A stretch of DNA of 64,000 bases from Terriglobia bacterium. GTDB taxonomy: Bacteria; Acidobacteriota; Terriglobia; Bryobacterales; Bryobacteraceae. A model generated the notes under the pieces. That model had not been told where the DNA came from. It made no database searches and worked only from the letters and a program-made list of their open reading frames with translations. Below are positions 5,341 to 55,754 of this stretch, in pieces. Made by a program: the position numbers and the translations under genes. The first letter of the stretch is position 1; each line of letters starts with the position of its first letter. The stretch spans positions 944,824 to 1,008,823 of the forward strand of contig CAVXJP010000008.1 of the NCBI GenBank assembly GCA_963762135.1, written 5' to 3'.

Positions 5341-5898
5341 ATGAACCGATCGAAATACGCACTTCCCGTAATCGCCGTGGCGATGCTGCTGGCCTGGATC
5401 AACTTGCGCGGGCAACAGGAGCCGGCGCTCACTGCGATGGACTATGTGGAGATCGAACAACTGATCTATCGCTACGCGCACGCCATCGATACCTGCGCGA
5501 ACAACGGCTATGACTATGCCGACCTCTACACGCCGGACGGCACCTTCACCGATAACGTGACCGATGAAGGCTATGGACAAGGAGGGCTGGTTCGGGCGCA
5601 TGGGCGCGAGGAACTGGCGCAAGCCGCCGGCGGAGGTGAGCTGGGTTGCAAGGACGTCGGCTGGAACGGCTGGAGCCACCTGCTGCTGAATCCGGTGATT
5701 ACGCCCGCGCCCGGTGGCGCTCGAGGGCGCACCTATCTGGTGACGATCGGGGCGAACGGGCCGAACTCGGTGGAGCGCTTCGGCGGCTATGAGGATTTCT
5801 ACGTCAAGACCGACGAGGGGTGGCGCATCAAATCCCGAACACACGTACGGAACAAGGCCTGGCACAATCCGCTGTTGCAGTCGCCGGATTTGAATTAA
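5341..5898 (+). CDS. SnoaL-like / NTF2 family protein, secreted
   Basis: 185-aa ORF. Signal peptide, then the EIEQLIYRYAHAIDT pattern typical of SnoaL_4/NTF2-like folds. Confidence 0.55.
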   Translation: MNRSKYALPVIAVAMLLAWINLRGQQEPALTAMDYVEIEQLIYRYAHAIDTCANNGYDYADLYTPDGTFTDNVTDEGYGQGGLVRAHGREELAQAAGGGELGCKDVGWNGWSHLLLNPVITPAPGGARGRTYLVTIGANGPNSVERFGGYEDFYVKTDEGWRIKSRTHVRNKAWHNPLLQSPDLN

Positions 5899-19768: not shown

Positions 19769-20891
19769 GGTTGTACTGGGGAGCATGGTCGGCATTCTCC
19801 TGCTGGTGATTCTGGTGATGTCGTTCCGTGACGGATCGTCGGATTCAGGCACAACCGAGCAGGCCGCTACCGACGCCGAGGCCGCGCAAATGATGAGCGA
19901 CGCGGCCGCCGATGAATTGGCCGGCGCAACCTTGACCAACCCGATCATCATCGCGATGGTCGAAGCCGAGGTTCCCTCGGAAGTGATTCTCAGTCAGATT
20001 AAGAACTCGCCGACGGATTTCAGTTTGCTACCCACCGATATCATTTCGCTGACCGCGGCCGGAGTGCCGGGTTTCATGATTGAAGCGATGCGAGATCCGT
20101 CGTCGATCCCCGACGTTCCCTTCATTCCGGAAGGGTCCGCCGATGCGAAGGCGTCCGCCAAGGGAACTGCTCCGAAGGATGCCCCCAAAGCTCCGGTGAA
20201 GCAGGAAAAGGCGGCGACGAAGTCGAGTTCTCCCACGCAGACGGCGAAAAATACGAAATCTTCCCCGGCACCCGCCAAGTCGGCGCCGACCCCGGCGCAA
20301 GCCGAGAATACCAAGGCGAAGTCCGCGGAACCTGAGGAGGTCGAGGAAGCCCGGTCAAAGGCGAATCAGGTGCGCGCGCAGATCGCGATGGCCCTGGCCC
20401 GAGCCAAGAGCGTCGCTCCGGAGACCGCCGAGGCGAATCCGAACGAACTGGAGCTGGCGCCGGCCGCTCCGCGGATGCGTCAGGTGACGCTGAAGGACGG
20501 GATGCCGGTAAAGATCCGGCTCTCGGCGGATGTGCCGAACGACACCAAGAAGGGCGCGACGCTGCGATTCGTGGTCGGCGCGGAAGTGCTGGCCGACGGC
20601 GCGGTGGTGCTGCGTCCGGGTGCACCCGTGGTGGGGGAGATTTCAAAGGAGCCGAGCCGTGGATTTCTGTTCGGCGGGTCGGACATGATGCTGACGCTGG
20701 GGTCTGCGACGGGTGTGGACGGCAGCAAGATCAAGCTCCGCGCGCTTCCCAAGAAGAATTCAGATGGGGAAACGGAACGTCCGGTAAAGACGGGAACTCC
20801 GGCGCCCGCCGATGGCCTCGCGGCGAATGCGGGCACCGAGTACATTGCCTATGTCGACGGGGACGCTCAGATCGAAGTCCCCGCCGAGTAG
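19611..20891 (+). CDS. Membrane-anchored extracytoplasmic region, likely the C-terminal part of the 18716 kinase or a separate gene starting at 19746
   Basis: Poly-Ser linker, TM helix VVLGSMVGILLLVILVM, an AGV-type helical repeat, a K/A/P-rich low-complexity stretch and a C-terminal beta domain. Confidence 0.5.
   Translation: MPAPTRDHAAGFAGRFRLRGSGHSSSSSSSSGAGQPPAEQAASGGMLFGLPNKVVLGSMVGILLLVILVMSFRDGSSDSGTTEQAATDAEAAQMMSDAAADELAGATLTNPIIIAMVEAEVPSEVILSQIKNSPTDFSLLPTDIISLTAAGVPGFMIEAMRDPSSIPDVPFIPEGSADAKASAKGTAPKDAPKAPVKQEKAATKSSSPTQTAKNTKSSPAPAKSAPTPAQAENTKAKSAEPEEVEEARSKANQVRAQIAMALARAKSVAPETAEANPNELELAPAAPRMRQVTLKDGMPVKIRLSADVPNDTKKGATLRFVVGAEVLADGAVVLRPGAPVVGEISKEPSRGFLFGGSDMMLTLGSATGVDGSKIKLRALPKKNSDGETERPVKTGTPAPADGLAANAGTEYIAYVDGDAQIEVPAE
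19680..19702 (+). repeat. (CTT)7 trinucleotide microsatellite
   Basis: tcttcttcttcttcttcttcttc read directly. It encodes poly-Ser in the 19611 frame and poly-Phe in the kinase frame. Confidence 0.9.
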
Positions 20892-41800: not shown

Positions 41801-42065
41801 TACCGAGGCTCCGCAATTCACGCTGGGCACGAGCTCGCGGAATCCCGTGATCGGGCCGGGCTACAAGACGCTGGATTTGATGATCGGCCGCACCTTCGCC
41901 CTCAGCGAAACCAAGAACCTCGAGTTCCGCCTCGAGGCCTTCAACGTGACCAACACGGCTTCCCTGGGGAATCCGAATACGACCTTCGGCTCGCCAGGCT
42001 TTGGGTCGATCACCTCAGCAAACGATCCCCGGGTGTTCGAGGCGGTGGCTAAGATTCACTTCTAA
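38850..42065 (+). CDS. TonB-dependent receptor with N-terminal carboxypeptidase-regulatory-like domain
   Basis: 1071 aa. Signal peptide, CarboxypepD_reg-type beta-sandwich, plug region (LNGRNY, SEYIYDGISV) and a terminal aromatic residue (..KIHF*). Confidence 0.85.
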   Translation: MALRAILLGMLVAVLLSGQSTKVELAVELEDAAGRPVPDASVRLTNVATAVTRTVPSTSEGEARFLGLPAGEYRITVTKDGYATLERSGITLQVGGEPTIELTLSPGEVSQTIQVTADTPLLDSTNGTVSFTVDQTRVEKLPLNGRNYIQLIALSPGVTLPPGSSFPRINGSRPRTSEYIYDGISVLQPEPGQVPFDPIIDAIDEFRVEVNSYSAEFGRSNGGIIMVNQKSGSNQVHGTLFEFLRNEALNARNLFATGASTKPRFRRNQYGFVLGGPIQKNRTFFFTAWQGTRLDTGVVRTSTVPTLAERSGIFNVPIYDPASTAQTAAGYVRSAFADNRIPVSRLDPVAMAALARYPLPTSAASANNYRRFGSNKTAQDQFDVRMDRYFSESQRIFARYTFFRDGSNPLTPLPDGSGNIPSGIIANSLTRAHSLATEHSWTISPTVLNQLRFGYTDRSLNRTAVNGPIYQLTGLQQLGAPLNAIGQFSTSVTQWVDNFSWIKGGHSLKAGADIRLEHLNVLQPPAPNGQYSFTNIFSSGLDSSGTPLPGTGNSVASFLLGQVDRYSIDIQPQIIRPRARIAEFFLQDDWKATSRLSLNIGLRYTLNFPSTVQGGRGAVFNLNTQKLDFLGVNGFPNAARNLSKSGFGPRVGLAYRIGNNSVVRSGYGLTWIEMAGITTPFTTPLFPFIQNLSQQTQDNISPAFVLRNGPTAQPQPIGPNAGLGQGVFGVQRNNGSGYAQQWNFTLQHTFGANWSLEAGYLGSKLTRLGVPDINLNQLTVDQLALGSKLIQQVANPYYGQIPATSTIGGPTVALAQLLRPYPEYTTVSLYRNNIGNSTYHSFQTSLQHRFAIGLTFSASYTFSRLIDDAGQVFNAAILTGPVTNFNAADSHNKRLEKDVSTGNIPNVFSAGLVYQLPRFRNVLARGWEISGIARFQSGSPLPVVQATNFNAFAGFGIQRPNRIADPTLPANLRSTSEWFNTAAFTEAPQFTLGTSSRNPVIGPGYKTLDLMIGRTFALSETKNLEFRLEAFNVTNTASLGNPNTTFGSPGFGSITSANDPRVFEAVAKIHF

Positions 42066-42083
42066 GAGGATTGCTGCGGAGTG

Positions 42084-42131
<48 letters not shown>

Positions 42132-42182
42132 AATCAAAGCACGAAGAATCAGTAAGATGGCGTCAAGGGCTACCGAGTATCA

Positions 42183-43110
42183 CTAAGTGTCCCCGCGCTT
42201 GCGTTTTAGGCCCCTTTCGTTCTTCCGCTGTGCGCTCCGTGATATTCCGTCTGTGTCGGTAGTAGGCACGTTATTAGGCACAGTCGCGCGCTTCCTTCGG
42301 CGCCACTCGCGCTGCCTGGTTGTTCTACTGCAGCGATCATGCGCCTCCTTGTTGGCGCTGTAGTCTGTGACATCCATCCATTTGCCGCAGAGCCTGCACT
42401 GCCTCGGCCGGCGTTCCCCGGTTACGACTTGTGAAAATTGGAGCCAAATTGCAGCAAGCAGATTGCTGGGAACCAGCTTCGCGCGCGATGAACCGTCCCG
42501 GCCGGCCACCAATTGCAGCGATACATGAGGGGTGACGATCACCTTCTCGGGTTTGTCTCTCCTTAGTTGCCGCACAGTGCCCGGCCAAAGATGCCCGTTT
42601 ATCGATTTTCGGAGCAATCCTTGGGCGTGCTGGAGCGGTTTTGTGAGAGTGATCTCATGGGCTTTGATTTCCTCCTGCGAGGAAACGCCTCAGGATCCGC
42701 GTGTTGCCTTCCTGGACCCGCTCCCATAATTTGAAATACCGCTGAAACTCCTGGACTTCAAAAAACCAATCGGAGAAAGGCTCCCCAATGCCTCCCGCGA
42801 AGTGGACCAGCCCAACGCCAAGTGCACCGAACCGATTTGCGATCTTCAAAAGTCCGGCCGGAGTCAGTTCGGCATTGACGAAATCAAGATATGCGTAATC
42901 GCTTTCTGACCTCGCCCTGTTGATCTCTATCTCAAGTTCTCGAATTGCTCCAGTACCCTTCGATGGGCCGTCAGGGATCGTCACAAGGAAGCGTTCCTCG
43001 GGCTGATTGCCGGGAGCATCCCGAATCCCTTTCCTCCACATATAGCCATCATTCGATATCCACTGGCGTGAAGGTTCGTATGCGTCTGTCCGGTCCTTGC
43101 GTTCGGTCAT
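42183..43110 (-). CDS. Hypothetical protein with C-terminal Cys-rich/basic tail (one frameshift near 42620-42660)
   Basis: ORFs 42655-43110 and 42183-42617 are contiguous on the same strand. CRLCGKW..HDRC motif. Confidence 0.4.
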
Positions 43111-43135
43111 GGGTCCTCAATTTTCCCTTTCCGAT

Positions 43136-43179
43136 GTAGACGCAAATGTAGACGAGAAATTGTATAGAAATGCGTCTAC
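43136..43179. promoter_or_regulatory. Operator-like repeats in a divergent promoter region
   Basis: GTAGACGCAAAT GTAGACGAGAAAT TGTATAGAAAT GCGTCTAC. 9-bp inverted repeat GTAGACGCA/TGCGTCTAC plus direct GTAGACG copies. Confidence 0.4.
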
Positions 43180-43310
43180 CTGGATGATACGCTGTGTTTG
43201 TCGTTGCAGTCAATAGTTCGCCATGGGCGATCTGATTGCATAGGGGCGTACCGGCGTCGAGCAGTGCCCGGGATCATCCGGGAGAAGTCTACCCAGAAGG
43301 AGTAACAGCC

Positions 43311-43493
43311 ATGAATGAGAAGCGCTATACCGTTCGCGAACTCTCCGAACGGACCAATATGAGCAAAGGGTTTTGGCGGAAACAGATCAACCTTGGCAAC
43401 ATCGAGGCCGAATACTTCGGGCGGTCGGTTCGGGTCACGGAAGCCGCGCTCAATGACTATTTGGAGCGTCAACAGCAGAAGCGGGCCGCCTAA
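43311..43493 (+). CDS. Excisionase-family / MerR-like helix-turn-helix protein
   Basis: YTVRELSERTNMSKGFWRKQI..IEAEYFGRSVRVTEAALNDYL. GAAGGAG RBS 8 nt upstream. Confidence 0.65.
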   Translation: MNEKRYTVRELSERTNMSKGFWRKQINLGNIEAEYFGRSVRVTEAALNDYLERQQQKRAA

Positions 43494-43753
43494 TGAAGGT
43501 TCTCGCACATGATGGGACCTATCTTGGCGACTATTCCGAGGAAACAGTAAGTCGAATCATCGAGCAGGGCCTCGGTCACTGCCACAAACGGTATGTTCGG
43601 CTCGTGCCCGAGGCGCGCCAAGAGCGCGGGAACTCGCTTCGGCGAGGCTACGTAGGCTCCAATGCGCTACGGCTGGATGGCCAGAACATACATTGCGCAG
43701 AGACGAGAGAGAACCCCCGCGGTTGCTGGACATTTGGAAGGGAGCGACGATGA
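43493..43753 (+). CDS. Hypothetical protein
   Basis: 86-aa ORF. Its ATG overlaps the preceding stop (TAATG). Confidence 0.35.
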   Translation: MKVLAHDGTYLGDYSEETVSRIIEQGLGHCHKRYVRLVPEARQERGNSLRRGYVGSNALRLDGQNIHCAETRENPRGCWTFGRERR

Positions 43754-43920
43754 TTAAGCCAATTCAGCGCGAACGCTCGGAATACCACTTACGCTGCTGG
43801 AGGTGCGCGGCTGAGCTCGCCCTTGATGCCGCAGACGTCGACGGGGCCGCCGGCCGGGCGCAGTGTCCGCATTGCGGCGCGAGGCTGGATGTTAACTGGC
43901 GAGAGGCGGCGCGCGGGTGA
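43750..43920 (+). CDS. Small zinc-ribbon protein
   Basis: CWRC..x21..CPHCG pattern. Overlapping start and stop codons with neighbours. Confidence 0.4.
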   Translation: MIKPIQRERSEYHLRCWRCAAELALDAADVDGAAGRAQCPHCGARLDVNWREAARG

Positions 43921-44510
43921 CGGCCACGGATCAAATCCATGATAGGCCGATCGAGCATTATCTGGAATCCCGCGGCTTTGAGCGGGCGCGGAACCGCTGG
44001 CGCTGCCAATTCCACGATGACCGGCGACCGTCGTGCACGGTCCGGGGAAATCGTCTCCGGTGTTGGGTCTGTAACGAAGCCTGGTCTGCGATTGACCTCG
44101 AAATGAAGCTTTCCGGTTGCACGCTTCAGGCAGCGATCGCGGAGGTCGCCGCATTCTTCGGCATCGAAACTGTGCGGTTATCGGCAGCAGAGCGCGCGCG
44201 GTATGCGGAGAATCGAAAGGCGGCTGCGGTCATGGCGGAACGGCTCGCGGACTTCCACGCCGGCCTATTACTGGAGCTCGATTCGGAACTTGAGGGCAGC
44301 GAGGATCCCGAGCCCCTCTCTGATATCCATGCGGAGCGGTACCGGATCACAACGGCCACACCCGAACAAATTGTTGACCGCTGGCAGGCCACAGGCGGCG
44401 CTGAGCGCGATCGTGTCGCCTCGATGGGGCGTGAGGACCGGGAACATGCCGAGGCGGTGACCTGGGCCATCGTGAGCATGCTGGCGACCGTCCAGGCGGA
44501 GGCGGCTTGA
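43917..44510 (+). CDS. CHC2 (DnaG-type) zinc-finger primase-like protein
   Basis: CQFHDDRRPSCTV..LRCWVCNEAWSAIDL matches the CxxH..CxxC primase zinc-finger layout. Confidence 0.6.
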   Translation: MTATDQIHDRPIEHYLESRGFERARNRWRCQFHDDRRPSCTVRGNRLRCWVCNEAWSAIDLEMKLSGCTLQAAIAEVAAFFGIETVRLSAAERARYAENRKAAAVMAERLADFHAGLLLELDSELEGSEDPEPLSDIHAERYRITTATPEQIVDRWQATGGAERDRVASMGREDREHAEAVTWAIVSMLATVQAEAA

Positions 44511-44573
44511 CTCTTTCACCAGAGCGATTTCTCCCCACTCTGCAGCGCAGTGGGACAGTTGAGGCGCTGACGA

Positions 44574-45495
44574 ATGGCGACCGGATCGCCAGTATTCGGG
44601 CTGTCTGCGGAATATGCGAATGAGCGGCCGGAGTGGATCTTTCCGCAATTCTTGACGGAGGGAACAGTGACGCTCCTAACCGGCGATGCCGGTTCCGGAA
44701 AGAGTACGTTCGCCTCCCATGTTGCGGATTGCGTCTCGCAGACGCGGCCCGTCCTAATGCTCGACCGGGAAAACCCGGCTTGGATTGTAAATGAGCGGCT
44801 GACGCGCCTCGGGATCGTTGACGGCGTGAATCTCAAAATTTGGGGCGGCTGGTGCGAGGATGAGCCTCCTGGCCCGTCATCACCGACGATTATCAGTTGG
44901 ACGGGAATCTTGCAACCCAAAGCCGCTCCTGATCTTTGATTCGCTTAGTGCCTTCAATGAGGGCGATGAAAACGACGCGCGCAACATACGGGGCTTCATG
45001 CAGGGGTTTCGCCGGCTTGCCGATATCGGCGGCACGGTTCTGACGCTGCATCACAGCGGCAAGGGCGAAACGACGAAAGACTATCGCGGGTCGAGCGACC
45101 TGAAAGCTTCCATCGACGCCGGGTTTCACCTGGCCAACTTCGGCGAAGGCCGGCTCGAACGGCTGCGCCTGCGCCCGTGGAAATGCCGCTGGGGAGTGGT
45201 AAGCGATTTGATACTCACCTATAGCGATGGTGAGTTCTCCGCGGGAACTGAGGGCGGCAGCGCGACCGTAACGGACCTGCTGAACGGACTCCTACGGGCG
45301 CATCCGAACATCACGACGGGGGAATTTGAGGCCCTCGCAATGGCGCAAGGGCTGGGGCGTGACCGGGCCCGGAGATTCCTCAAAAACGGCGTCGATATGG
45401 GGACGATTAGAAGCGAATCTGGCGCGGGCCGGAAGGTGCTTTACGCATGCGCGGGAAATGATCCGCTAGCGGATAACCCGCGGTTCAGCGGATAG
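44574..45495 (+). CDS. RepA/AAA_25-like RecA-fold replication ATPase (one frameshift near 44900)
   Basis: Walker A LLTGDAGSGKST, Walker B-like PLLIFDSLSAF, LTLHHSGKG. Continues in ORF 44860. Confidence 0.65.
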
Positions 45496-45630
45496 CCTCG
45501 CGGAATGACTGTAAGTTGCTGAATCTACATATCCGCTGATTCGCGGGCGGGGTATTCGCGAGGTCAAAAAAAGCACTATTCGCTGAAATCGCGGGGCTCT
45601 ATATAGAGCCCGCATCAGCGGATGCCGCGA
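45484..45630. repeat. Iteron-like repeats and an 18-bp perfect palindrome (candidate ori or pac region)
   Basis: Four copies, in both orientations, of CCGCTGA..TCGCGG-type units. GGGCTCTATATAGAGCCC at 45594-45611. Confidence 0.5.
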
Positions 45631-45645
45631 AACGGAGATTAGCGA

Positions 45646-45939
45646 TTGGATTTGAAACGCAGAAACGGGAGCCGGAAGAACGGGAGCCCGGAACATACCC
45701 GCATCGCGCAGGCGGCGATCAGGGCCCGGGCGAGACTTCGGGATTTGGGGAACGTCGACGGCGTGCCCGAATGGTTGAGCGCGGAACTTCTCGCAATGGC
45801 GAGCCAATTGACCGTGGCGCTCAAGGCGCGGAGAGATAGGCCGGGGGGAGCGAGCGGCGTAGGGTCCAAGAAGCCCTCGCGACAGCCACCCCTAAATAAA
45901 AAGGCGCCGTCAAGATCCGATTATCAACCCCAAATCTGA
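45646..45939 (+). CDS. Small basic protein translationally coupled to the large terminase gene
   Basis: 97-aa Arg/Lys-rich ORF. Its TGA stop is immediately followed by the terminase ATG. TTG start is uncertain. Confidence 0.35.
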   Translation: MDLKRRNGSRKNGSPEHTRIAQAAIRARARLRDLGNVDGVPEWLSAELLAMASQLTVALKARRDRPGGASGVGSKKPSRQPPLNKKAPSRSDYQPQI

Positions 45940-47393
45940 ATGAACGAACTACTCCATGACGAACTCGAAGGTTGGATGTCCAGCATCGAGGCGGAAGAAG
46001 GGAGCCGGGCCCGTAGGCTCGCTCTCGCGTCCGACACGCGGCCGGTCTGGGTCCAAGGGTACGAAGCCCTCGGATTCGAGCCGCGGCCGTCTCAGGCGGC
46101 ATTCCACGCCGGCACGGCCTTCTATCGGGGCTTCTCCGGGCCGGTCGGATCGGGCAAATCTCAGGCGCTCGCGAATGAAGCGTTGCGGCTCGCGTATGAG
46201 AACCCGGGGTTACCTGGAATGCTGGCGGCTCCGACGTTTCCACTTTGCGAGATGCCACGCGCGCGCACTTCCTCGACCTGCTGCAGGCATTGGGCGTGCC
46301 TTATGACTTCCGGAAGTCGGACAACGAGCTACGGCTGGTGGATACCGGGTCGGTGGTTCGGTTTCGCTCGCTGGACAATCCCGAGCGGCTGATCGGGCCT
46401 AACTTGGCATGGGCCGGCCTCGATGAGCTTACGTACTCGAAAGAGGATGCCTGGCGGCGCGTAATTGCTCGCGTTCGCCATAAGCAGGCGCGGAAGCTCG
46501 GAGTATGTGCGGTGTGGACGCCGAAGGGCTTCGATTGGGTTTATGGGCGGTTTGTTGGTCCGGATCGCAACGAGCAATACGAAGCCTATCTCGCCAAGCC
46601 GGGCGAGAATGCGGAGGGCTTGCGGCCGGGTTATTACGAAGACCTGAAGACGGACTACGATGAGCGGTTCTATCGGCAGGAGGTTCTAGGCGAGTACCTG
46701 AGCGTATTCGCGGGTCAGGTCTATCACGCGTTCGATCGCGCGGAGAACGTGCGGCGGCTGGACTTCGACCGGCGGCACCCCTTGGTGTGGAGCCTTGATT
46801 TCAACGTTGACCCGATGGCTTCGGTGATCGGGCAAATTGTCGGCAATGAGCTCCGGATCCTGGAGGAGATCGTTCTCCCCAACAGCAACACGCCCGAAGC
46901 GTGCCGAGTCTTTGGCGAGCGAATGAGCAAATACCTGGACGAGGCAAGAACGGGCATTGCCGGCCACGTCGAGGTTCCGGTTCGCGTCTATGGCGATTCA
47001 ACCGGCCGGCGGAGGCAGACCTCCGCGGGCGCTGACTCTTCCGATTGGCGACTGGTTAGGGATTGGTTTGCGGAGCATGCCGCGGATCACCCGATGGATT
47101 TCATGGTTCCATCCGTCAATCCGCCCGTAAAGTTCCGCGTGCATTCCACCAATGCACTCTTGCGCAACGCTCAGGGCGTGCGTCGGTTGTTCATCGATCC
47201 AAGCTGCCGGGAGTTGATCGCGGACTATGAGCAAGTCGCATGGAAAGCCGATGCGGCGGGGAACAGCATCGGTGATATCGACAAGGTGAAAAATCCCAAG
47301 CGGACGCATGTGAGCGATGCCGCGGGCTACGTGATCGCTCGGGAATTCGGGCTTCGGACGTATGGCGGCATCGGCACGGAGATGGTCCTGTAA
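45940..47393 (+). CDS. terL: Phage terminase large subunit (one frameshift near 46245)
   Basis: Walker A GPVGSGKS, Walker B AWAGLDE, nuclease acidic motifs WSLDFNVDP, YGDSTG, HVSDAAGY. Confidence 0.85.
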
Positions 47394-47428
47394 TCGAGCA
47401 TTATCGGAAGCCAAGAAAGGACAGGTAT

Positions 47429-47812
47429 ATGAGTGAACGCAAGCTGACGAAGAAGCTGCAGACCTCGCTGTGCAACGCCCTTGCCGCGGGGCTGCCCATG
47501 CAGATCGCCGTGAACTTCGTCGGTGTGCATAAGCGGACGGTTTACCGCTGGATCCAGCGGGGCCAGCAGGAAGACGAAGGCACGTATCACGATTTCGTTC
47601 TGGCGATTGAGGCGGCGCTCGCGAAGGTTCAGGAGAAGTACCTCAACATCATCCTGGCGGCGGCGGAAAAGAACTGGACCGCGGCGGCCTGGTATCTGGA
47701 GCGGCGATGGCCGATGCACTGGGGCAAGTATCGGCAGGTGGATAAGCCGGCGGCGGGCAATGCGCCGATGCCACCACTGAAAGCGGCGGATGAGAAGGAG
47801 AACGATGAGTAA
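47429..47812 (+). CDS. Small-terminase-like HTH protein
   Basis: HTH VGVHKRTVYRWIQRG and a W..AAAWYLERRWP..WGK motif, as seen in small terminase / HTH packaging proteins. Confidence 0.5.
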   Translation: MSERKLTKKLQTSLCNALAAGLPMQIAVNFVGVHKRTVYRWIQRGQQEDEGTYHDFVLAIEAALAKVQEKYLNIILAAAEKNWTAAAWYLERRWPMHWGKYRQVDKPAAGNAPMPPLKAADEKENDE

Positions 47813-48507
47813 CGCAACAACAGCAAAAGAACCGAAGCCGGCCGAAACGCCGGCTTTTGATTTGGCGGCCACACCCACGCTGCATCTGGTCACGCAAGGC
47901 GACCCGGCGGAGCGAATCCAGAAGGCGCTCGCACAAGCATGGAAGGCCGCGGGTGAAGTTCCCGCGGTCAAGAAAGCTACTGCGGAGCATGATGCGGCTA
48001 CCAATGAGCGGCAGCGATTGCAGCGGGCTTGGACGACGCTAAACGAGACCTCGCGTGGTCTATTGGAGCAACTGAACTCGATTAGCGAGGACTATCTAGG
48101 CGAAGTAATCGACACGGCGGCCGAGGGCAAAAAGCCGGACCCCATAAAAGCTCACCCGCGTCGCGGGGTTGCAGAAAGAACACGAGTTGATCGGGTGGGC
48201 CTTACATCAAGTCGCGGTGGTCCGCATGCCGCTTGCGGAGATCGCGGAACTTCGCGCGGAGTCGCACAAGTGCGGCGCGGTTGCCGCGGCCCTTAAGGCG
48301 CACGCCCATCAGCGCGTTGCCGCGCGAATGGAAAGCCTGCGCGGGGCAGTCGAAGAAGAAGGCGAGCTGCCCATCAACTTCAAGTCCGGAGCAACCGGCC
48401 AAATCATGGCCCATTCCGGACGGGAAGCCGAGCGCGCGCAGGAGCTATGGCGGCGGGCGGACGAACTCGAACGGCGTTTTAAGGACATGCAGAAAGGAAC
48501 GAAGTAA
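47805..48507 (+). CDS. Hypothetical coiled-coil protein (one frameshift near 48160)
   Basis: Starts MSNATTAKEP with a GAAGGAG RBS. Continues in ORF 48169. Confidence 0.4.
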
Positions 48508-48509
48508 CT

Positions 48510-48699
48510 ATGAGCGAAAAAGTGAATTTATCGGCGCTCACCGATGACCAACTGAAGGAGTTGGGCGGCAACGTCGCGGCGGGAAGCCGAGCGGCGGCGC
48601 GACAAGATCGAGATGGAAGACATCAAGATTGGCATGGATGACGAAACGAGTAAGCGCGCATGGGCTGAGGTCCGGCGGGCTTTAGGGGAGGGCAGATAG
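48510..48699 (+). CDS. Small hypothetical protein (net 1-nt indel)
   Basis: MSEKVNLSALTDDQLKELGG.. The length is not a multiple of 3. Ends ..ALGEGR* immediately before the next ATG. Confidence 0.3.
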
Positions 48700-49027
48700 A
48701 TGCGGGATCAACGCGAATACTGGGCCGCGGTTCGAGCGCAGGAACGGCAGCTTGAAGAGTCAAATCCGGGGGCCCGCTGCGTTTTCATCGCGTCCATGGG
48801 CGACGAGCGGAATCCGGCCGTGGGCCCTGCCGGGATCATTGTGGAGGCGACTTTTTACAACGCGGCGCGGCACATGGTTCGACGGCTCCCATCGGCTCGC
48901 GACATCCGAAGAGATCGACGCCTATCGGGAGGATCAAGAGCGGCGCAGAGCGGCACTGCGCGCCGAAGAGCTCCGGGCCAAGGGGATCGTAGCCGTGGGC
49001 GTTCCGCCTCTACCGCCGGCCGCATGA
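48700..49027 (+). CDS. Small hypothetical protein (one frameshift near 48880)
   Basis: MRDQREYWAAVRAQERQLEE.. continues as ..SHRLATSEEIDAYREDQERRRAAL in ORF 48752. Confidence 0.3.
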
Positions 49028-49119
49028 GGTTAGCCCACCGTCCGCTACTGGGGCCCGCTGTTTCTCCTTTATCGCGGGCCCCGATTTTTACCACCGATAA
49101 CCAAACCGAATCGACACCG

Positions 49120-49647
49120 ATGAAACGACCCACGGAAGAAATCATTGAGATCTTCGCCGATGCGGCTCGCAGAGGCGCCCATCTTGAGGTTGCCGCGGAC
49201 CTGGCTCAGGTCCCGGTAGAGCGTGCGCGGGCCTGGCTCTATTGGGGCGAGACCGCCCGGCGTGGTTCATCCTTCAACCGGTTCTACTGGGCCTGGAAGC
49301 AAGCCGAGGCCGAATTTGAGGCCCGATGCGTCCGCGGACTGCGGGACGGCGCGGAGGGCTGGCAGCGATTCGCGCGGCTCTTGGCGGAAAGATCACCCGA
49401 GCGGTGGGGGAAGGAGGCGGAGCGGTGTAAGGATGACCTGTTGTGCATGAGCAATAGAGGGGAGCGCGTCCGGACTGGGCCTCGCTCGACGGCGCGGCAA
49501 GGCTCACAGGGTCCCCCGGATGCCTCCCCGCCACCACGATTCCGAAGTCCCCGGGGCGCTTCTCCTTATGATGTTGATATGGTTGACATTCCATGCCTCA
49601 TGCTCTTGTCGTTTAGCATCAACACTTTACGTTTGACCGGGAGGTAG
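49120..49647 (+). CDS. Second small-terminase-like HTH protein (paralog of 47429). The 3' end is uncertain.
   Basis: Same layout: HTH region, then W..FARLLAERSPERWGK. Confidence 0.4.
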   Translation: MKRPTEEIIEIFADAARRGAHLEVAADLAQVPVERARAWLYWGETARRGSSFNRFYWAWKQAEAEFEARCVRGLRDGAEGWQRFARLLAERSPERWGKEAERCKDDLLCMSNRGERVRTGPRSTARQGSQGPPDASPPPRFRSPRGASPYDVDMVDIPCLMLLSFSINTLRLTGR

Positions 49648-49752
49648 ATAACTGATACATTATGTATACAGTTCGTTGTACCTAGAGATTGCAGAGCTTT
49701 CCACGTGGGCGACGATTCTGGCCGCCTTTACAGAAGAAAGCCAATGGGGAGT

Positions 49753-49836
49753 AGGAAGGTGGCGGAGTCGAACCGCTATCCCGCCAAGAGCATCGCGTTC
49801 ATAAGACGCCTTCTAAGCACCGGCTAGTCACCTTCC
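49753..49836 (-). tRNA. Non-canonical tRNA-like gene with 8/4 acceptor/T-stem geometry, long variable arm, anticodon UAU (allo-tRNA-like)
   Basis: Hand fold: GGAAGGTG-A-CTAGC CGGT GCTTAG-AA-GGCGT CTTATGA ACGCG-ATGCTCTTGGCGGGATA-GCGG TTCGACT CCGC-CACCTTCC-T. Acceptor stem is 8 bp. T stem is 4 bp with a canonical TTCGACT loop. Confidence 0.6.
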
Positions 49837-49844
49837 GCAGAAAA

Positions 49845-49872
49845 AGTATGATTCGGCCCTACTCGTGGTAAA
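49845..49872 (-). promoter_or_regulatory. Candidate promoter for the tRNA-like gene
   Basis: The minus strand reads TTTACC-N16-CATACT. The -10 ends 8 nt before the first base of the acceptor stem. Confidence 0.3.
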
Positions 49873-50013
49873 GGGGCCAGCTTGGCGCGTATGCAAAATG
49901 ATGCTGACACGCGCCCCTTATTGGGTCAATGAGTTTGGCCGATGAGTTGCTAGTAATATTGTTGCACTTTGTTAATTGGTAGAAGTGCGCGAGACGGGGA
50001 GTGGATTCTTTAT

Positions 50014-50393
50014 ATGGGTAGTGTTGCTGTACCTCTTCCACAAGGAATCGGTAGTCCGAGCTTTAGTCAGACTTTGAAATTAGTTGGGTTGCCGACTGAG
50101 GCACCCAGTGCTCACCATGAGCAATTGGCCACAAGTGCTGAGCAGGCTCTGGTTCAGGGGACGATCGCGCAGGTAATTGAAGGACTGGTTCGCCGAGCGC
50201 TGGAGGCGCGTAGGAGGGGATCGAGTTTTTCGCGGTGCGCAGGGAAGTGTTCCGTGAGTATTTCGCGGCGATTCGGGCTATGGGGGACCTTCTCCAAGTA
50301 ATCGTCCCACGCCGGTCGGTTGACCGGCTGATCGCGGAGTCACTCTGCAACTTAGAAGCTTTCATTTCAGGGACGATGCTATTCAGAAATTAG
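50014..50393 (+). CDS. Hypothetical protein (possible frameshift near 50215)
   Basis: First ORF of the lower-GC plus-strand cluster. The alternative frame after 50217 reads GIEFFAVRREVFREYFAAIRAMGDLL.., which is more protein-like. Confidence 0.3.
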
Positions 50394-50464
50394 GCACTGA
50401 CTTCTCTCAACGCGGACTTTTCACTGTCTGGACACTTAGGAAAATTAACGACCTTGCTAAGGAA

Positions 50465-50758
50465 ATGGCCGATAGTCCCTCTTCCGGTGGAGATGAAGCT
50501 ATCGCGGCACGAGAGATGGATCTGGAATTCGCGATGAAAGCGATTTGGACACGTTTTCATGTTGACTGTTTAATCATGGCTATGAAGACGGGAAAGCCGA
50601 TTTATCCGGGTGTCGTCGAGCCCATGCGTGATGGCTTACGGGCTGCCGTTGATGCATATGCGGCCATCCGTCAAGCTCTAGATTTGCGGTCTGCGCCTAC
50701 CGTTGAACCTGAGTTGACAGACCTTCAATGGACGGATGAAGATCAAGACATGGGTTGA
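50465..50758 (+). CDS. Hypothetical protein, candidate antitoxin for the downstream MazF-like toxin
   Basis: 97-aa ORF ending 55 nt upstream of the toxin gene. Acidic C-terminus (TDLQWTDEDQDMG). No recognisable AbrB/RHH motif. Confidence 0.4.
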   Translation: MADSPSSGGDEAIAAREMDLEFAMKAIWTRFHVDCLIMAMKTGKPIYPGVVEPMRDGLRAAVDAYAAIRQALDLRSAPTVEPELTDLQWTDEDQDMG

Positions 50759-50812
50759 GGATTCCATGCATAGCAACTGACTGCAGCAGGACGTTTTTGA
50801 GCATTTTGAGAG

Positions 50813-51184
50813 ATGCCTATAGAACAAGGGGAAATCTATTGGGTTGATATTCCCGCACATCAGACAGAGGGCTCCGAGCAATATGGGCGGCGTCCCTGCA
50901 TAGTGATGTCACGGAATACGATCAACTCGCGACTCAACACGGTGGTCGTAGTACCAATGAGCAGTCAGGGCGTCCAAAACCAACCGCCATTTCGAATCCT
51001 CATCCCAATAGCGGAAATTACGAAGGACGTCGGTTGCAATAGTGATCTAAAGCCCAGCGTAGCGAAGACGGATCAGGCGCGAGTCATAGCCCAAAGTCGG
51101 CTCCAGCAAAGGATTGGAAAATTATCACAAACTGCAACTATTGCCGTAGGTCTTGGGCTCGCATACGTATTTGACATTCGATAA
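50813..51184 (+). CDS. MazF/PemK/Kid-family type II toxin (endoribonuclease)
   Basis: GEIYWVDIP..G.E..GRRPCIVMS...N..L.TVVVVPMSS...........SVAKTDQARVI...RL...IGKL is the classic PemK/MazF pattern. Confidence 0.8.
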   Translation: MPIEQGEIYWVDIPAHQTEGSEQYGRRPCIVMSRNTINSRLNTVVVVPMSSQGVQNQPPFRILIPIAEITKDVGCNSDLKPSVAKTDQARVIAQSRLQQRIGKLSQTATIAVGLGLAYVFDIR

Positions 51185-51216
51185 TCGGGGGTTATCGGAT
51201 CCCAAATCGGACCCAG

Positions 51217-51423
51217 TTGCCGGTTGACCAGCAGGGAGAGCATCGGTACTGCGAATCCCCAATTGCCACGGTCTTCATAGGCGATGTCGCGGCGCTTGCG
51301 CCTGACGGCAGCCAGCTTAATGCCATCTCTTACAGCTGTGGAACTTGTCGAAAGGCGATCAGCGTTCAAATCGATCCGATTGCGATCAAAGCCGATATTG
51401 TTGACGAAATCACAGGCCGGTAG
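51217..51423 (+). CDS. Possible small ORF downstream of the toxin
   Basis: 68 codons with a TTG start. Overlaps the integrase stop by 14 nt. Coding status is uncertain. Confidence 0.2.
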   Translation: MPVDQQGEHRYCESPIATVFIGDVAALAPDGSQLNAISYSCGTCRKAISVQIDPIAIKADIVDEITGR

Positions 51424-52420
51424 AGGAAAGCGCGTTGCTCCGGAACAGGCTCGCCTCGCGCGTATAGCGCAACACCATCGCTAGGGACCGGTGGCCGGTC
51501 TGCCGCATGATCGCCTTGAGGTTCGCGCCTCCGGTGGCGGCGCTGGTGACGAATCCCGCGCGTAGCGAGTGGCCGGCGAATTTGGCCTTGTCCCGATCCG
51601 CAGGCAGGAGCTTTTTAACGATCATGGCGACGGCACGGCCGCTCAGTCGGTCCTTAAGCCTGCCACCCTTCGCCACGGCGCGGAAGATGGCGCCCTGAGC
51701 GATCCCTGAGGCGTCGAGCCATTCCTGGAGGGCTCGGACAGGGCAGGCGGTCGAATGGGGCAGCGCGGGTACGCCAATACGGCGCCCACGGCCCTCCTGG
51801 TCGGTCTTGGACCGGCGGAGGACGATCACAAGGCCCTCGCTGGTGTGTTCGAGGTCTGCAACGTCCAGCGCGACCAATTCCGAGCGGCGGAAGGCCCCGG
51901 CGAAGCCGATCAGCAGCAGGGCGCGGTCCCTCTTGCCTATGAGGGTATCCGGGAGCTTCGAGACGATCTCGCGAACGTCTGAGGCCAGCAAGGGCGCTTT
52001 CTGTTCCTGGGCGGTTCCATGCGTGCGGCGGATTCCCTTGAGGACGGAGCGCACGGCTTCGTGTCCGGTGGGAGATTCGAGGCCGCGGAGCTTGTGAGTT
52101 TGGCTGATGGAGGTTAGGCGGCGCTGCAGCGTGGCGACCTTCAGCTTTCCGGCCTGGTCCGCGATATAGGCGGCCACGGTTCCGGGGGATGCCGGCAGCG
52201 GCGATAGGTCCCGTTCGGCGCACCACTCGCTGAAGATGCGCCAGTCGGTACGGTAGCCGCGGACGGTGGATTCTGCCCGGCTGGAGCGCGCATATTCACG
52301 TGCGCGCTCCGCCTCGGGCGAGTAGAGGGATAGTTCGGCGTGTTGGGTTTGAGGTTGCGCCAGCGCGCTCACTGTTGCATTTCCTTTCTGGCTTGAAGGA
52401 TCTCCTTCAGGGAGGACCAC
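51410..52420 (-). CDS. Tyrosine recombinase / site-specific integrase (second integrase of the element)
   Basis: SAM-like N-domain (TVRGYRTDWRIFSEWC) and catalytic residues in ..RRSE.., HSLRAGF.., LRYTRE. The likely real start is the GTG at 52372. Confidence 0.85.
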   Translation of the reverse strand: MVLPEGDPSSQKGNATVSALAQPQTQHAELSLYSPEAERAREYARSSRAESTVRGYRTDWRIFSEWCAERDLSPLPASPGTVAAYIADQAGKLKVATLQRRLTSISQTHKLRGLESPTGHEAVRSVLKGIRRTHGTAQEQKAPLLASDVREIVSKLPDTLIGKRDRALLLIGFAGAFRRSELVALDVADLEHTSEGLVIVLRRSKTDQEGRGRRIGVPALPHSTACPVRALQEWLDASGIAQGAIFRAVAKGGRLKDRLSGRAVAMIVKKLLPADRDKAKFAGHSLRAGFVTSAATGGANLKAIMRQTGHRSLAMVLRYTREASLFRSNALSSTGL

Positions 52421-52473
52421 CCGAGGTCATCACGGCGGCGCGGCGGCAAATCCTCGATAGTGGCTGATTTCAT
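52369..52473 (-). CDS. 34-codon ORF translationally coupled to the integrase
   Basis: AAGGAG-N5-ATG RBS. Its stop overlaps the integrase GTG (caGTGA). Confidence 0.35.
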   Translation of the reverse strand: MKSATIEDLPPRRRDDLGWSSLKEILQARKEMQQ

Positions 52474-52526
52474 TGGTTCTCCTTTTTTGCGCCGATAACT
52501 TGATTTAATCGGCGTGTGTTAGCATT

Positions 52527-52547
52527 ATGCGTGAGGCCCTCACGCAT
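52527..52547. promoter_or_regulatory. Perfect palindrome ATGCGTGAG-GCC-CTCACGCAT with a third ATGCGTA half-site at 52554
   Basis: Read directly. Lies in the divergent region between the integrase-side ORF and the 52590 ORF. Confidence 0.45.
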
Positions 52548-52589
52548 GTCAAGATGCGTAACCCCCTCAGGCGTACATAGGCTACAGGG

Positions 52590-52785
52590 GTGGCAAAGAA
52601 GAAAAGGGAATTTACCTCGATGACGGAAATGCTTGAGTTCTTTCGGGAGACCGGGCGGCAGGGCGGCAAGATCGGCGGCAAAGCACGCGCGAAGAAGCTC
52701 ACCAAGAAACAGCGCAGCGAATCCGCCAAGAAAAGCGGCTCAGGCTCGATCGGAAGAAGGCCAAAAAGAAGGCCAAGGCCAATAA
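52590..52785 (+). CDS. Small basic protein (GGKARAKKLT..QRSE.AKKAAQAR type), 1-nt A-run indel
   Basis: Removing one A from the run at 52731-52734 restores ..SAKKAAQARSEEGQKEGQGQ*. Confidence 0.4.
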
Positions 52786-52787
52786 GA

Positions 52788-53322
52788 ATGGGAAAGGTGA
52801 TGAGTAGGGAGACGCAGGTATACAAACCGTCCCCAGAAGAACGGCTGGCCGGAATCGAACACGTGGCTTATGAATACTCGAACTTCGTTCGAGCTCACGT
52901 GTTCCTAGGAACCGGCGCACCCCAGGGGTGGACCTATGGCCGTGATCACGGGAAACGCCTTCCTGCTCAGTTGCCGGCAGTTGGCGGAATTTTTCGGGGC
53001 GCCGACGGAGAAGCCAGATATTCTGGCTGTCCACTATACGAATCGCGGCCCAGTGGAGTTTGCAGAATTCGGCAAATGGCGGAAAGCCCTAAATGCTCAG
53101 CTCGCGCATCTGAGCTACGAGCGGGTCAATAATCCACAGGCGGATCTCACTGCCACGGTCACAAGGCGGAACTATCATGAGCTTCGCAAAGCATTCCATA
53201 AGTTTTTGTGCCGTGTTAAGTGCGGGGATCACGTGAAAGAGTTCCAGCGATGCCTAGCCGCGCGGCAGAAGGTCGTCCAGGTGAGGCTTTTGGATGAATC
53301 TATACGGAAGTTGAGGGCCTAA
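52788..53322 (+). CDS. Hypothetical protein (one frameshift near 52930)
   Basis: MGKVMSRETQVYKPSPEERLAGIEHVAYEY.. continues as ..ITGNAFLLSCRQLAEFFG.. in ORF 52936. Confidence 0.35.
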
Positions 53323-53324
53323 GA

Positions 53325-54541
53325 ATGGGAGTCTATAAGCGCAAAGTATTCGGCCTACGGGTGGTACAAGTTCGTTTGGCGGGGCCAGACGATCCGGGAG
53401 AGCACCAAACAGACCAATAAGCGTGTGGCTGAAACGATGGAATCCGCGCGGCGAACGCAACTCGCCAAGGGCGAAGTGGGTATCAGAGACTTGAAGCCGG
53501 CACCCACGCTACGCCAACTTTACGCAGAAGGACTTCCTGCCCTACTGCCGGCTTGCCTACAAGCCGAAACCGAATCACCTGACGCACTACAAGAACGGCA
53601 CACGCGCGCTCCTAACGTTCGAGAAGATCGCCTCAAAGAAGCTCGATGAAATCACCGCGGAAGACATCACTGCTTATGTCCAGTTTCGGCAGGGGGCGGT
53701 GTTCAAGGTATCGACTGTGACCCGTGAGCTCGAATGCTGCAGCGGCGCATGTTCGCCGCTGGTCGATGGAATGGGGCAAGACGATCAAGGCACTCCCCAA
53801 GGTCCGAATGCTATCGGGCGAAGCGCATCGCGAACGCGTCCTGAGCCATGCCGAGGAGCGGAAGTATCTCGAAGCGACTGCCGAACTCGGACAGTCCATT
53901 GAGGCGGCATATGGGGCGGCCCTGACAGGGATACGTGCGACACAACGTGCTGGTGCAACCCCCCATCAAGCCAAGCAGATCCCTACCGGCTGCGCGACGC
54001 GGCCACGATTCACATCGATTGCGGCCTGCGGCCGGCGGAGTGTTTCAGCCTGCGATGGGAGAACGTCCTGGAGGATTCGCTAGAAATCCTCGAAGGCAAG
54101 ACCAAGAACGCGCGGCGGCGGATTCCGTTTTCTGAGCGTGTCGGAGCAATCCTCACGATGCGCAGGGCCGCGAGGATGGAATCCGATTGGGTCTTCCCGG
54201 CGCCTACCAAGAGCGGCCACATCGAGCCGTCATCGCTGCGCAAGCCTCACGTGAACGCCTGCAAGGCCGCAAAGGTTGAGCAATTCGACCTCTACACATT
54301 CAGGCATACGTGCCTGACGCGCTGGGCAGCCTCGGGGATGGATCCCTGGACGGTTCGTTACCTGGCCGGCCATTCCGATATGAACATCACGCGGCGATAC
54401 GTTCACCCGCAGGCCGATGCGATCCGCGCGGCGATGAAGCGGGCACGAGCTACGCCCGAGGTTCAGGGTGGGCACGTTCCCGGGCACAGTGGAAAATCAG
54501 ACCAAATGCAGGATAGTGCAGAGGGACCCGCAGTAAATTGA
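53325..54541 (+). CDS. int: Tyrosine integrase next to tRNA-Arg (about 5 frameshifts)
   Basis: Pieces in three frames: MGVYKRK.., KFVWRGQTIRESTKQTNKRVAE.., YKNGTRALLTFEKI.., EWGKTIKALPKVRMLSGEAHRERVL.., LRPAECFSLRWENV.., FRHTCLTRWA.., LAGHSDMNITRRYVH. Confidence 0.8.
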
Positions 54542-54555
54542 ATCTACTTGGGTTA

Positions 54556-54634
<79 letters not shown>

Positions 54635-54902
54635 AAGGGGGTTATGTTCCGCTCGAAACCTTCCGTGCGGAACACTTCGAAGGTAGCACACTCGGCGGCG
54701 GCACGGCTAGATTTTTCCATGCGGCGATGGGGCTCCATCCGGTGTGCCTTGAATGCGCTCATACGGTGGGATGCGATAAGCTATGCATGGATTTTTCGAG
54801 GGCTCCCCGCCTGGCACAACGAACCGTTGGCCGCCTCCGGGCGGGACCTCTGCCTGGCCGATGATGCCGGGCACCGAAGACAATATAAGGGAGTTCGCAA
54901 TT

Positions 54903-55754
54903 ATGAGAAAAAGCAATAGCCAATGGATGGCGCTGTGCGCGTTGGTGCTGGTCGCCGCCGCGCCGGCCTTCGCGCAAAAGGAGATCTACAACACGGTGAA
55001 GAGCAAGCTTGCCGCCGGAGAACAGGTGTTCGGGGGCACGGTGCTGACCGGCGATCCGGAGATCTATTGCGCCATGGCGAACTCGGGCTGGGATTTCCTG
55101 TGGATCGAGATGCAGCACTCGCCGCTGACCTATCAGGAGGTCGCGCACATGATCGCCCATTGCCCGGACGCCACCGCGATCCCCTTTATCCGCGTGCCGG
55201 ACGCCACGCCCGGCGACATCCAGAAAGCGGTCGACATCGGGGCGCTGGGAGTCATTGTCCCGATGGTCCAGGATGTCCAGGAAGTGCTTGATGCGGTTCG
55301 GTTTGCCAAGTATCCGCCGATGGGGGAGCGGAGCCAGGGCAACGGCCAGTACGGCCAGATCTGGGGCCGCAGCTATCGCCAGACCGCCAATGACAACGTC
55401 ATGATTGTCGGGATGGTGGAGAATCCCAAGGGCGTCGACATCGCCGACCAGATCGCCGCAGTGGACGGGGTGGACGTGGTTTTCGTCGCCTCCAGCGACC
55501 TGGGCAGCTTCAGCGGCAAGCGGCAGGGCGATCCGGAATACGAGGCGCTGGTCTCCCGGACCCGCGATGCCGTGCTGGCTGCGGGCAAGATCGTCGGCGG
55601 TCCGCAGGCCTGGCGCGACCGCGAAGGCTATCATTTCTTCCAGGGTGCTCCCGATACGGCGATCATTCGCCAGGGGACGCGCGCGGCGCTGGGGCTCGAC
55701 GGGCCGCAGCAGCCCCGGTCCGGGGTGGCTCCGATCGAGGGCCAGGAGAAGTAG
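54903..55754 (+). CDS. HpcH/HpaI-family aldolase with predicted signal peptide
   Basis: WDFLWIEMQHSP, IPFIRVP and GVIVPMV motifs. N-terminus MRKSNSQWMALCALVLVAAAPAFAQ. Confidence 0.7.
   Translation: MRKSNSQWMALCALVLVAAAPAFAQKEIYNTVKSKLAAGEQVFGGTVLTGDPEIYCAMANSGWDFLWIEMQHSPLTYQEVAHMIAHCPDATAIPFIRVPDATPGDIQKAVDIGALGVIVPMVQDVQEVLDAVRFAKYPPMGERSQGNGQYGQIWGRSYRQTANDNVMIVGMVENPKGVDIADQIAAVDGVDVVFVASSDLGSFSGKRQGDPEYEALVSRTRDAVLAAGKIVGGPQAWRDREGYHFFQGAPDTAIIRQGTRAALGLDGPQQPRSGVAPIEGQEK

Follow-up and report, generated by a model that had tools for sequence, protein, structure and literature searches.

Allo-transfer RNAs (allo-tRNAs) are defined by an acceptor branch divided 8/4 or 9/3, a D arm resembling that of tRNA-Sec, a long variable arm, and G or U at position 73 (Mukai et al. 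2017, PMC5389517). The group with a UAU anticodon is the most abundant among them. Its members come from acidobacterial sequences and lie near toxin-antitoxin systems and transposon-related genes, and their cloverleaf is slightly unlike the standard allo-tRNA form and carries stem-destabilising mutations (PMC5389517). We analysed a 64,000-nucleotide (nt) stretch of a Terriglobia bacterium contig (CAVXJP010000008.1, positions 944,824 to 1,008,823), referred to here as the window, and found an 84-nt gene of this kind at 49753-49836 on the minus strand, identified from its sequence, a covariance model of its family and two-sided base changes. The gene is almost certainly a true allo-tRNA(UAU) family member, carried in a low-G+C MazF cassette of a decaying 12.5-kb element in a Bryobacterales host.

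In minus-strand order the gene reads GGAAGGUG-A-CUAGC-CGGU-GCUUAG-AA-GGCGU-CUUAUGA-ACGCG-AUGCUCUUGGCGGGAUA-GCGG-UUCGACU-CCGC-CACCUUCC-U. The acceptor stem has 8 base pairs (bp), all eight of which are formed between GGAAGGUG (49836-49829) and CACCUUCC (49761-49754). The D arm, CUAGC-CGGU-GCU(U)AG (49827-49813), has five pairs and one bulged U, with the loop CGGU at 49822-49819. The anticodon stem GGCGU/ACGCG (49810-49806 and 49798-49794) contains four Watson-Crick pairs and a G·G mismatch, and it encloses the 7-nt loop CUUAUGA (49805-49799) with the anticodon UAU at 49803-49801. A variable region of 17 nt, AUGCUCUUGGCGGGAUA (49793-49777), is followed by the T arm GCGG-UUCGACU-CCGC (49776-49762), in which 4 of 4 pairs form. 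The acceptor branch is therefore 8 + 4 = 12 bp, the canonical total length, and the discriminator is U (49753) with no CCA after it. A preliminary description of this stretch, made from the letters alone, had drawn the same acceptor stem, T arm, D loop, variable region, anticodon loop, discriminator and missing CCA; we located all of them, and its caveat about the mismatched anticodon stem matches the sequence.

Standard tools are silent at this position. ARAGORN made no call at 49753-49836 and Rfam at gathering thresholds returned nothing there; both report only a tRNA-Ala and a tRNA-Arg in the window. The Rfam tRNA model does not match the window copy. In a permissive local scan of 301 nt the Rfam tRNA-Sec model (RF01852) reached 27.3 bits (E 0.0016), below its threshold of 47, and the same model scored 35.8 bits (sub-threshold) and 52.1 bits (above 47) on the homologous loci L123 and L145. 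The minimum-free-energy fold of the window copy is no better than that of shuffled sequence (z = -1.09), and the window sequence alone is not distinguishable from a lucky fold. A covariance model, R2, built from seven homologues from other genomes and metagenomes with the window sequence excluded, scored the window copy at 75.2 bits (E 4.1e-16 across both strands of the 64-kb window), with a runner-up of 18 bits. ARAGORN labels six homologues tRNA-Ile(tat) and leaves the window copy and the L121 copy uncalled. The homologue evidence is decisive for the reality of the gene, because the window-free model gives this score and because the family exhibits two-sided base changes.

Pattern scans of public collections gave two close relatives, L121 and L123, both in Bryobacteraceae metagenome-assembled genomes (MAGs). 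The RNA copies in the peat metagenome loci L125 and L135 are identical to L123, and two other candidates from the scans, L122 and L130, are chance matches. When the element (42000-55000) was compared with the homologous loci by blastn, the sole shared segment was the 84-nt RNA, at 79-81% identity, indicating a discrete conserved RNA gene with unrelated contexts around it. The L135 RNA overlaps the end of an open reading frame (ORF) of 230 amino acids (aa), and a protein search from this ORF led to more homologue contigs. In five of these (L137, L140, L141, L142 and L145) a more divergent RNA copy lies directly 3' of the ORF, and two (L138 and L139) have more distant ORF homologues without a tRNA. 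Two copies in the family are damaged: L143 is a decayed copy whose T arm is gone, and L121 has three broken acceptor pairs. Searches of plasmid and viral collections gave no members. With the RNA as blastn query, PLSDB plasmids and INPHARED phages yielded only 21-24-nt chance matches, or none, and four pattern scans of IMG/VR viral contigs had no family member among the matches listed. Model R1 scored at most 40 bits on IMG/VR viral loci, the level expected of generic long-arm tRNAs. A protein-database search with a spurious ORF overlapping the tRNA gave no further copies.

Alignment A2 contains eight distinct members, the window copy among them. Standard pairs form at 94.2% of the pair positions of the 8/4 cloverleaf, as compared to 85.8 ± 1.2% after column shuffling (0/500 shuffles attain the observed value) and 38-54% in a partner-sliding control. 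Nine pairs have changes on both sides: acceptor pairs 4 and 7, two pairs in the D stem, three in the anticodon stem and two in the T stem. In the window copy acceptor pair 4 is A-U (G-C in other members) and pair 7 is U-A (C-G in other members), so that two of its acceptor pairs are altered on both sides relative to most relatives, indicating that pairing was maintained after divergence. Seven of the eight members have G-C as the eighth acceptor pair, which never covaries, and the alternative fifth T pair required for a 7/5 arrangement (columns 65-81) is unpaired in 8/8. The 8/4 split is thus supported by the exclusion of 7/5 in every member together with the conservation of the eighth pair. 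Compensatory change in the T stem and the eighth acceptor pair had been suggested as a check; the T stem provides it, with its two pairs changed on both sides, and the eighth acceptor pair does not.

The remaining parts of the fold are also retained across the family. The D stem is 5 bp with a CGGU or UGGC loop, 100% of its positions are paired, two of its pairs being among those changed on both sides, and the GG of the D loop is kept throughout. The variable region is 17-20 nt, with a family stem of 4 bp and a tetraloop that is 87.5% paired and exhibits one-sided changes only. No sixth pair forms in the anticodon stem, which is 5 bp long. UAU is the anticodon of every one of the eight aligned members and of the second copy in L145. 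The 7-nt anticodon loop follows the pattern Y-U-UAU-R-A, with UAU constant while the stem below it changes on both sides. The T loop is UUCGACU or UUCAACU in 7/8 members, the exception being L145 with UCCGAUC, where C replaces the near-universal U55. The discriminator is U in the window copy and L145 and G in the other members. Unconstrained minimum-energy folding of L137, L141 and L142 yields the 8/4 cloverleaf itself. Selection acts on both the 8/4 fold and the UAU loop in this family.

The features described by Mukai et al. for allo-tRNA(UAU) served as the basis on which we compared the gene with that group. The two are alike in the 8/4 branch, the tRNA-Sec-like D arm with a tetraloop, the long variable region, the G or U discriminator and the UAU anticodon. 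They also share an acidobacterial host, a vicinity of toxin-antitoxin, transposase and other mobile-element genes, and stem-destabilising changes in some copies. A sub-threshold match to tRNA-Sec, as found here, is how the class was discovered. The window copy has every defining allo-tRNA feature that was tested except the longer anticodon stem of the standard form; in the family this stem is 5 bp, and in the window copy it is reduced to four Watson-Crick pairs plus G·G. This is compatible with membership in the UAU group, whose cloverleaf is described as slightly unlike the standard one (PMC5389517). The acceptor split, D arm, variable region, discriminator, anticodon and Acidobacteriota loci together bear out the earlier assignment to the 8/4 allo-tRNA-like class with a UAU anticodon.

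Bacterial tRNA-Sec (RF01852) is the best Rfam match and resembles the gene in its 8-bp acceptor stem, its long D stem with a YGGU tetraloop and its long variable arm. It differs in having a 13-bp (8/5) branch where the window copy has 12 bp (8/4), the anticodon UCA in place of UAU, and a 6-bp rather than a 5-bp anticodon stem. Identity as tRNA-Sec is ruled out by the UAU anticodon, the 12-bp branch and the score of 27.3 bits against a threshold of 47. The minor, AUA-reading tRNA-Ile (anticodon LAU, in a few bacteria UAU) has an anticodon loop identical in form to the C-U-UAU-A-A of the better family members, and ARAGORN labels the homologues tRNA-Ile(tat), but that tRNA has a 7/5 branch, whereas here the branch is 8/4, the variable arm is long, position 73 is G or U and not A, there is no CCA and the window copy has G37. 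A canonical tRNA-Ile(UAU) is ruled out by the 8/4 branch, the 17-nt variable region, U73, G37 and the missing match to the Rfam tRNA model. Cargo tRNAs of phages and integrative elements are likewise carried on an element and have anticodons that fit codons rare in the host and commoner in the element. In contrast to this family, they are normally canonical and recognisable, and the family is not among the IMG/VR matches listed.

Other unusual tRNAs with a UAU anticodon were observed on metagenome contigs. Canonical 7/5 tRNAs with a long variable arm, G73 and the loop CUUAUGA (UAU, G37), labelled tRNA-Ile(tat) by ARAGORN, occur at L126 752-840, L127 2173-2259, L128 1298-1383, L134 177-261 and L136 1367-1452, and also in L129 and L133. 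They combine a Ser/Leu-type body with the Ile AUA anticodon and could reflect AUA recoding or another unusual tRNA class. The AT-rich, phage-like locus L131 (39-1767) packs an array of 16 tRNA genes into 1.8 kb. One of them (419-510), a tRNA(UAU), combines a long variable arm with a long D stem that ends in a CGG(U) loop.

The window gene lies within an integrated element of 12.47 kb. A 48-bp exact direct repeat (42084-42131 = 54556-54603) copies the 3' part of tRNA-Arg(ACG) and brackets the allo-tRNA gene, in agreement with the earlier statement that the gene is carried on a mobile element. The proximal copy of this attachment (att) repeat, 54556-54603, lies inside the tRNA-Arg(ACG) gene (54558-54634, minus strand; ARAGORN and Rfam), and the distal copy, 42084-42131, marks the far end of the element. 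Beside the tRNA-Arg is an integrase on the plus strand that is split into two ORFs (53724-54083 and 54158-54541), with PF00589 matching the C-terminal ORF only (profile 90-169). An intact tyrosine recombinase of 336 aa is encoded at 51410-52420 on the minus strand (PF00589, E 3.3e-16). The other Pfam-annotated genes, all on the plus strand, are a CHC2 primase zinc ribbon (43917-44510), an AAA_25 ATPase split in two (44574-44939 and 44860-45495), a large terminase split in two (45940-46392 and 46245-47393) and an Sf6-like small terminase/helix-turn-helix (HTH) protein (47429-47812). From its gene content the element looks like a phage satellite or a defective prophage. We considered whether the allo-tRNA might be the att site of the second recombinase and found no second copy of its 3' 21-mer in the window with up to 3 mismatches; the sole att-type repeat belongs to tRNA-Arg, and the idea was dropped. 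An inverted repeat (49371-49387 vs 49781-49797) that touches the variable region was judged to be chance.

A full-length PemK/MazF-type toxin is encoded at 50813-51184 on the plus strand (PF02452, E 3.4e-25, profile 1-108 of 109), 977 nt from the allo-tRNA. A 97-aa ORF 55 nt upstream of MazF (50465-50758, plus strand, divergent from the allo-tRNA) is a putative antitoxin by its position and has no Pfam match at E<=0.01. The composition profile reveals a low-G+C block at 49600-51400 (GC 0.50-0.54 vs 0.59-0.67 on either side) that contains the allo-tRNA, a gene-poor spacer of ~630 nt, the ORF in the antitoxin position and MazF. The shared low G+C of the allo-tRNA and MazF suggests arrival as a cassette, and the block was probably acquired as one piece. 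Copies elsewhere have comparable neighbours. A MazE antitoxin lies beside the L135/L146 copy, an Eco57I-type restriction-modification gene and an IS1595 transposase lie beside the L121 copy, and an IS1595 transposase is near the L137 copy. A Cys-rich zinc-ribbon-like segment is present at 51250-51420 (plus strand) of the window and at 5303-5473 (minus strand) of L121, with 44% identity over 57 aa (tblastx E 8e-12). It has no Pfam match, lies just upstream of the IS1595 transposase in L121, and is common to the two loci that have the allo-tRNA but not the MOD-A/MOD-B gene pair described below.

The closest named relatives of the arginine decarboxylase encoded in the window are from Bryobacterales/Bryobacteraceae (80-81% identity), which points to a Bryobacterales (Acidobacteriota) host and agrees with the Bryobacteraceae MAG source of the RNA homologues. 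Exact look-ups of the window MazF and TonB-receptor proteins returned no contigs. Housekeeping genes of the window outside the element are intact, with full-length Pfam matches. Because split genes are confined to the element, they indicate real element decay rather than a generally error-prone assembly, and the suspicion of an indel-prone assembly voiced in the preliminary description was not borne out. Elsewhere in the window (18716-20891) a Ser/Thr kinase ORF of 350 aa overlaps by 158 nt, in another frame, a 426-aa ORF without a Pfam match; either a frameshift or a true overlap may be responsible.

At a number of other loci the RNA is preceded by one or both genes of a conserved pair that we call MOD-A and MOD-B. 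The pair precedes the tRNA in L135/L146, L142, L145 and the decayed L143, and MOD-B only precedes it in L137, L140 and L141, contigs on which no MOD-A gene was called. The module together with the tRNA spans L135 1004-2608 (= L146 5161-6765), L142 464-2093 and L145 2143-3781, and MOD-B with the tRNA spans L137 4001-4778, L140 4001-4806 and L141 366-1157. The MOD-B genes themselves are located at L146 6001-6693, L137 4001-4708, L140 4001-4708, L141 366-1067, L142 1319-2023 and L145 3001-3720. MOD-A is ~280 aa and has a sub-threshold N-terminal OST-HTH/LOTUS match in 5/5 homologues (best E 3e-4), a predicted RNA-binding domain. MOD-B is about 235 aa (230 aa in L135) and has no match in Pfam, PADLOC or PDB sequences. 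Its AlphaFold model is confident and has two α/β domains (predicted local distance difference test, pLDDT, 87.7), for which Foldseek found nothing in the PDB better than a template modelling (TM) score of 0.33. In L135/L146, L137 and L142 the UAG stop codon of MOD-B is formed by tRNA nucleotides 11-13, inside the D stem, so that cleavage by RNase P at G1 would remove the stop codon from the upstream MOD-B mRNA. The MOD-B ORF stops just upstream of the tRNA in L140 and L141. A tblastn search found neither MOD-A nor MOD-B in the window; the module is thus relevant to the function of the family rather than to that of the window copy.

Two of these loci have further peculiarities. L145 carries two different allo-tRNA(UAU) genes, 1070-1158 and 3698-3781, one on either side of the MOD-A/MOD-B module. 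In the upstream copy, which can be drawn as 9/3 or 8/4, the variable stem is 6 bp and the T loop, AUCGUGU, is unusual. In L143 (1139-2744) MOD-B is split into ORFs of 102 aa and 126 aa and the tRNA lacks the T arm and the 3' acceptor strand; as judged from the sequence, the module and the tRNA of this locus decayed together.

We measured the use of the AUA codon as observed over expected from third-position composition. The ratio is 0.13 for host genes, 0.27 for the other genes of the element and 0.50 for other low-G+C accessory genes. For MOD-B directly upstream of the tRNA it is 0.89 (six loci), and for the window MazF it is 0.77, with AUA at 4/13 Ile codons. AUA occurs at 0.87 per 1000 codons in the host as compared to 4.05 per 1000 in the element. 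In L142 MOD-B, AUA encodes 8/12 Ile residues. MOD-B differs from the other low-G+C accessory genes in a Fisher test uncorrected for relatedness (odds ratio 2.6, p = 0.003), and AUA sites differ between MOD-B homologues, indicating that they are not simply inherited. These values suggest that genes adjoining allo-tRNA(UAU) do not avoid AUA, unlike host genes and other accessory genes.

Perhaps the family is an element-borne adaptor directed at AUA, a role that we favour tentatively because AUA is not avoided in the neighbouring genes and because tRNA features are retained. After transcription the RNA would go through tRNA-type maturation, with a 5' end made by RNase P, 3' trimming and CCA addition. 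Its UAU loop would then be offered to AUA codons, which are nearly absent in host genes and unavoided in the genes beside the copies. Once charged, such an adaptor may decode AUA for neighbours such as MazF, or AUA may be mis-decoded as Ser. We infer each of these steps, from transcription and maturation to charging and decoding, including the reading of AUA that the preliminary description had put forward.

Several observations weigh against this proposal. The AUA signal is weak, as the MOD-B genes are related to one another and the sample is small; for MazF alone the test gives p = 0.10, and no gene uses AUA beyond the expectation from its own composition. The window copy does not encode CCA, whereas both host tRNAs of the window do. 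Consensus scans of the minus strand gave no convincing promoter or terminator for the RNA, which counts against activity of the window copy in particular. When six UAU-group members were converted to a CUA anticodon, none suppressed amber codons in E. coli and two were toxic (PMC5389517). The conversion to CUA would also abolish any anticodon-dependent recognition by isoleucyl-tRNA synthetase. A 2020 review adds nothing on the function of allo-tRNA(UAU), and our literature search found no later functional work.

An extension of the adaptor proposal is that the RNA gates its AUA-tolerant neighbours, MazF here and MOD-B elsewhere, as a codon-gated addiction or defence switch. Under such gating, a private non-canonical tRNA would be required for the output of the toxin or module, or would corrupt it. 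Where the tRNA overlaps the upstream gene, its maturation would in addition eliminate the stop codon of that mRNA. We regard this extension as quite doubtful.

The alternative that survives best concerns the window copy alone, which may be an inactive relic, a decaying allo-tRNA(UAU) pseudogene in a degenerating element, in line with the reasonable caveat of a decayed copy in the preliminary description. Set against the family consensus, the 3' strand of its D stem has gained a U (GCUUAG where the consensus has GCUAG, at 49815-49816), without which this stem would match the consensus perfectly. The outermost pair of the anticodon stem is G·G rather than G-C, the variable stem is weak, being made of C·A, U·G, C-G and U·G, and U36 is followed by G37. 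Its cloverleaf has an energy of -23.7 kcal/mol as compared to -29.8 kcal/mol for a competing fold, its own minimum-energy structure, 6 kcal/mol lower. Other members except L121 have cloverleaves of -28 to -37.5 kcal/mol, making that of the window the least stable of the family apart from L121. The copy is rejected by ARAGORN, as is L121, while six homologues are called. In the surrounding element the integrase, large terminase and AAA_25 ATPase genes are split while the housekeeping genes outside it are intact. Decay of family copies is demonstrated by L121 and L143, and an allo-tRNA(UAU) pseudogene has been reported in Edaphobacter C40 (PMC5389517). Apart from the Edaphobacter pseudogene, all of this also counts against activity of the window copy as an adaptor. 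Against a relic are the perfect acceptor (8/8) and T (4/4) stems, the two acceptor pairs changed on both sides with pairing preserved, and the intact anticodon, T and D loops. G37 is found in L121 and L123 as well (A37 in the other five members) and is therefore a subclade trait and not a private lesion, and the neighbouring MazF and tyrosine recombinase genes are intact. Unlike the wrecked copies of L121 and L143, that of the window is a variant or somewhat degraded member, and that it is inactive seems to us somewhat unlikely.

A second alternative is that the RNA does not decode, its tRNA shape serving instead to bind proteins, as a decoy or regulator for a tRNA-directed toxin, as a partner of MOD-A/MOD-B, or as a processing signal for RNase P/Z where an mRNA ends. 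In E. coli the published members of the UAU group showed no activity in translation (PMC5389517), the family recurs beside toxin-antitoxin genes and CCA is not encoded. The overlap of the tRNA with the MOD-B stop codon in L135 (= L146), L137 and L142, where RNase P would leave a non-stop mRNA, and the recurrent OST-HTH/LOTUS match of MOD-A would both fit such a role. Yet the strict Y-U-UAU-R-A loop and the 12-bp branch are not obviously explained by it, although a protein partner that reads the loop could account for them. Partnership with the module is not general, since the window copy has neither MOD-A nor MOD-B. The ORF of L140 and L141 terminates ahead of the tRNA. A non-decoding role is, in our judgement, fairly unlikely.

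The last alternative, a fortuitous cloverleaf or a normal 7/5 tRNA garbled by errors of the assembly, would account for a fold no more stable than shuffled sequence and for the silence of ARAGORN and of Rfam at gathering thresholds, but it is effectively refuted. The window-free model gives an E value of 4e-16, the conserved identity stops exactly at the limits of the RNA in surroundings that are otherwise unrelated, 7/5 pairing fails in all members, and the intact housekeeping genes speak against an assembly generally prone to indels.

Only a few natural tRNAs depart from the universal 7/5 architecture. Allo-tRNAs are among them, and the UAU group is the commonest kind of allo-tRNA. The class, the UAU group and its association with toxin-antitoxin systems and mobile elements are already published. 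New here are the added member and the two-sided base changes of its family, the linkage to MOD-A/MOD-B and the relaxed avoidance of AUA; no mention of the last two was found in the available portions of Mukai et al. and of the 2020 review. The locus adds a copy in a long Bryobacterales contig with a defined context, a MazF cassette within an element integrated at tRNA-Arg. If AUA is indeed decoded or mis-decoded by these RNAs, they would provide a natural chassis for genetic-code engineering, and the family would represent mobile elements that use structurally unusual tRNAs to control their own genes.

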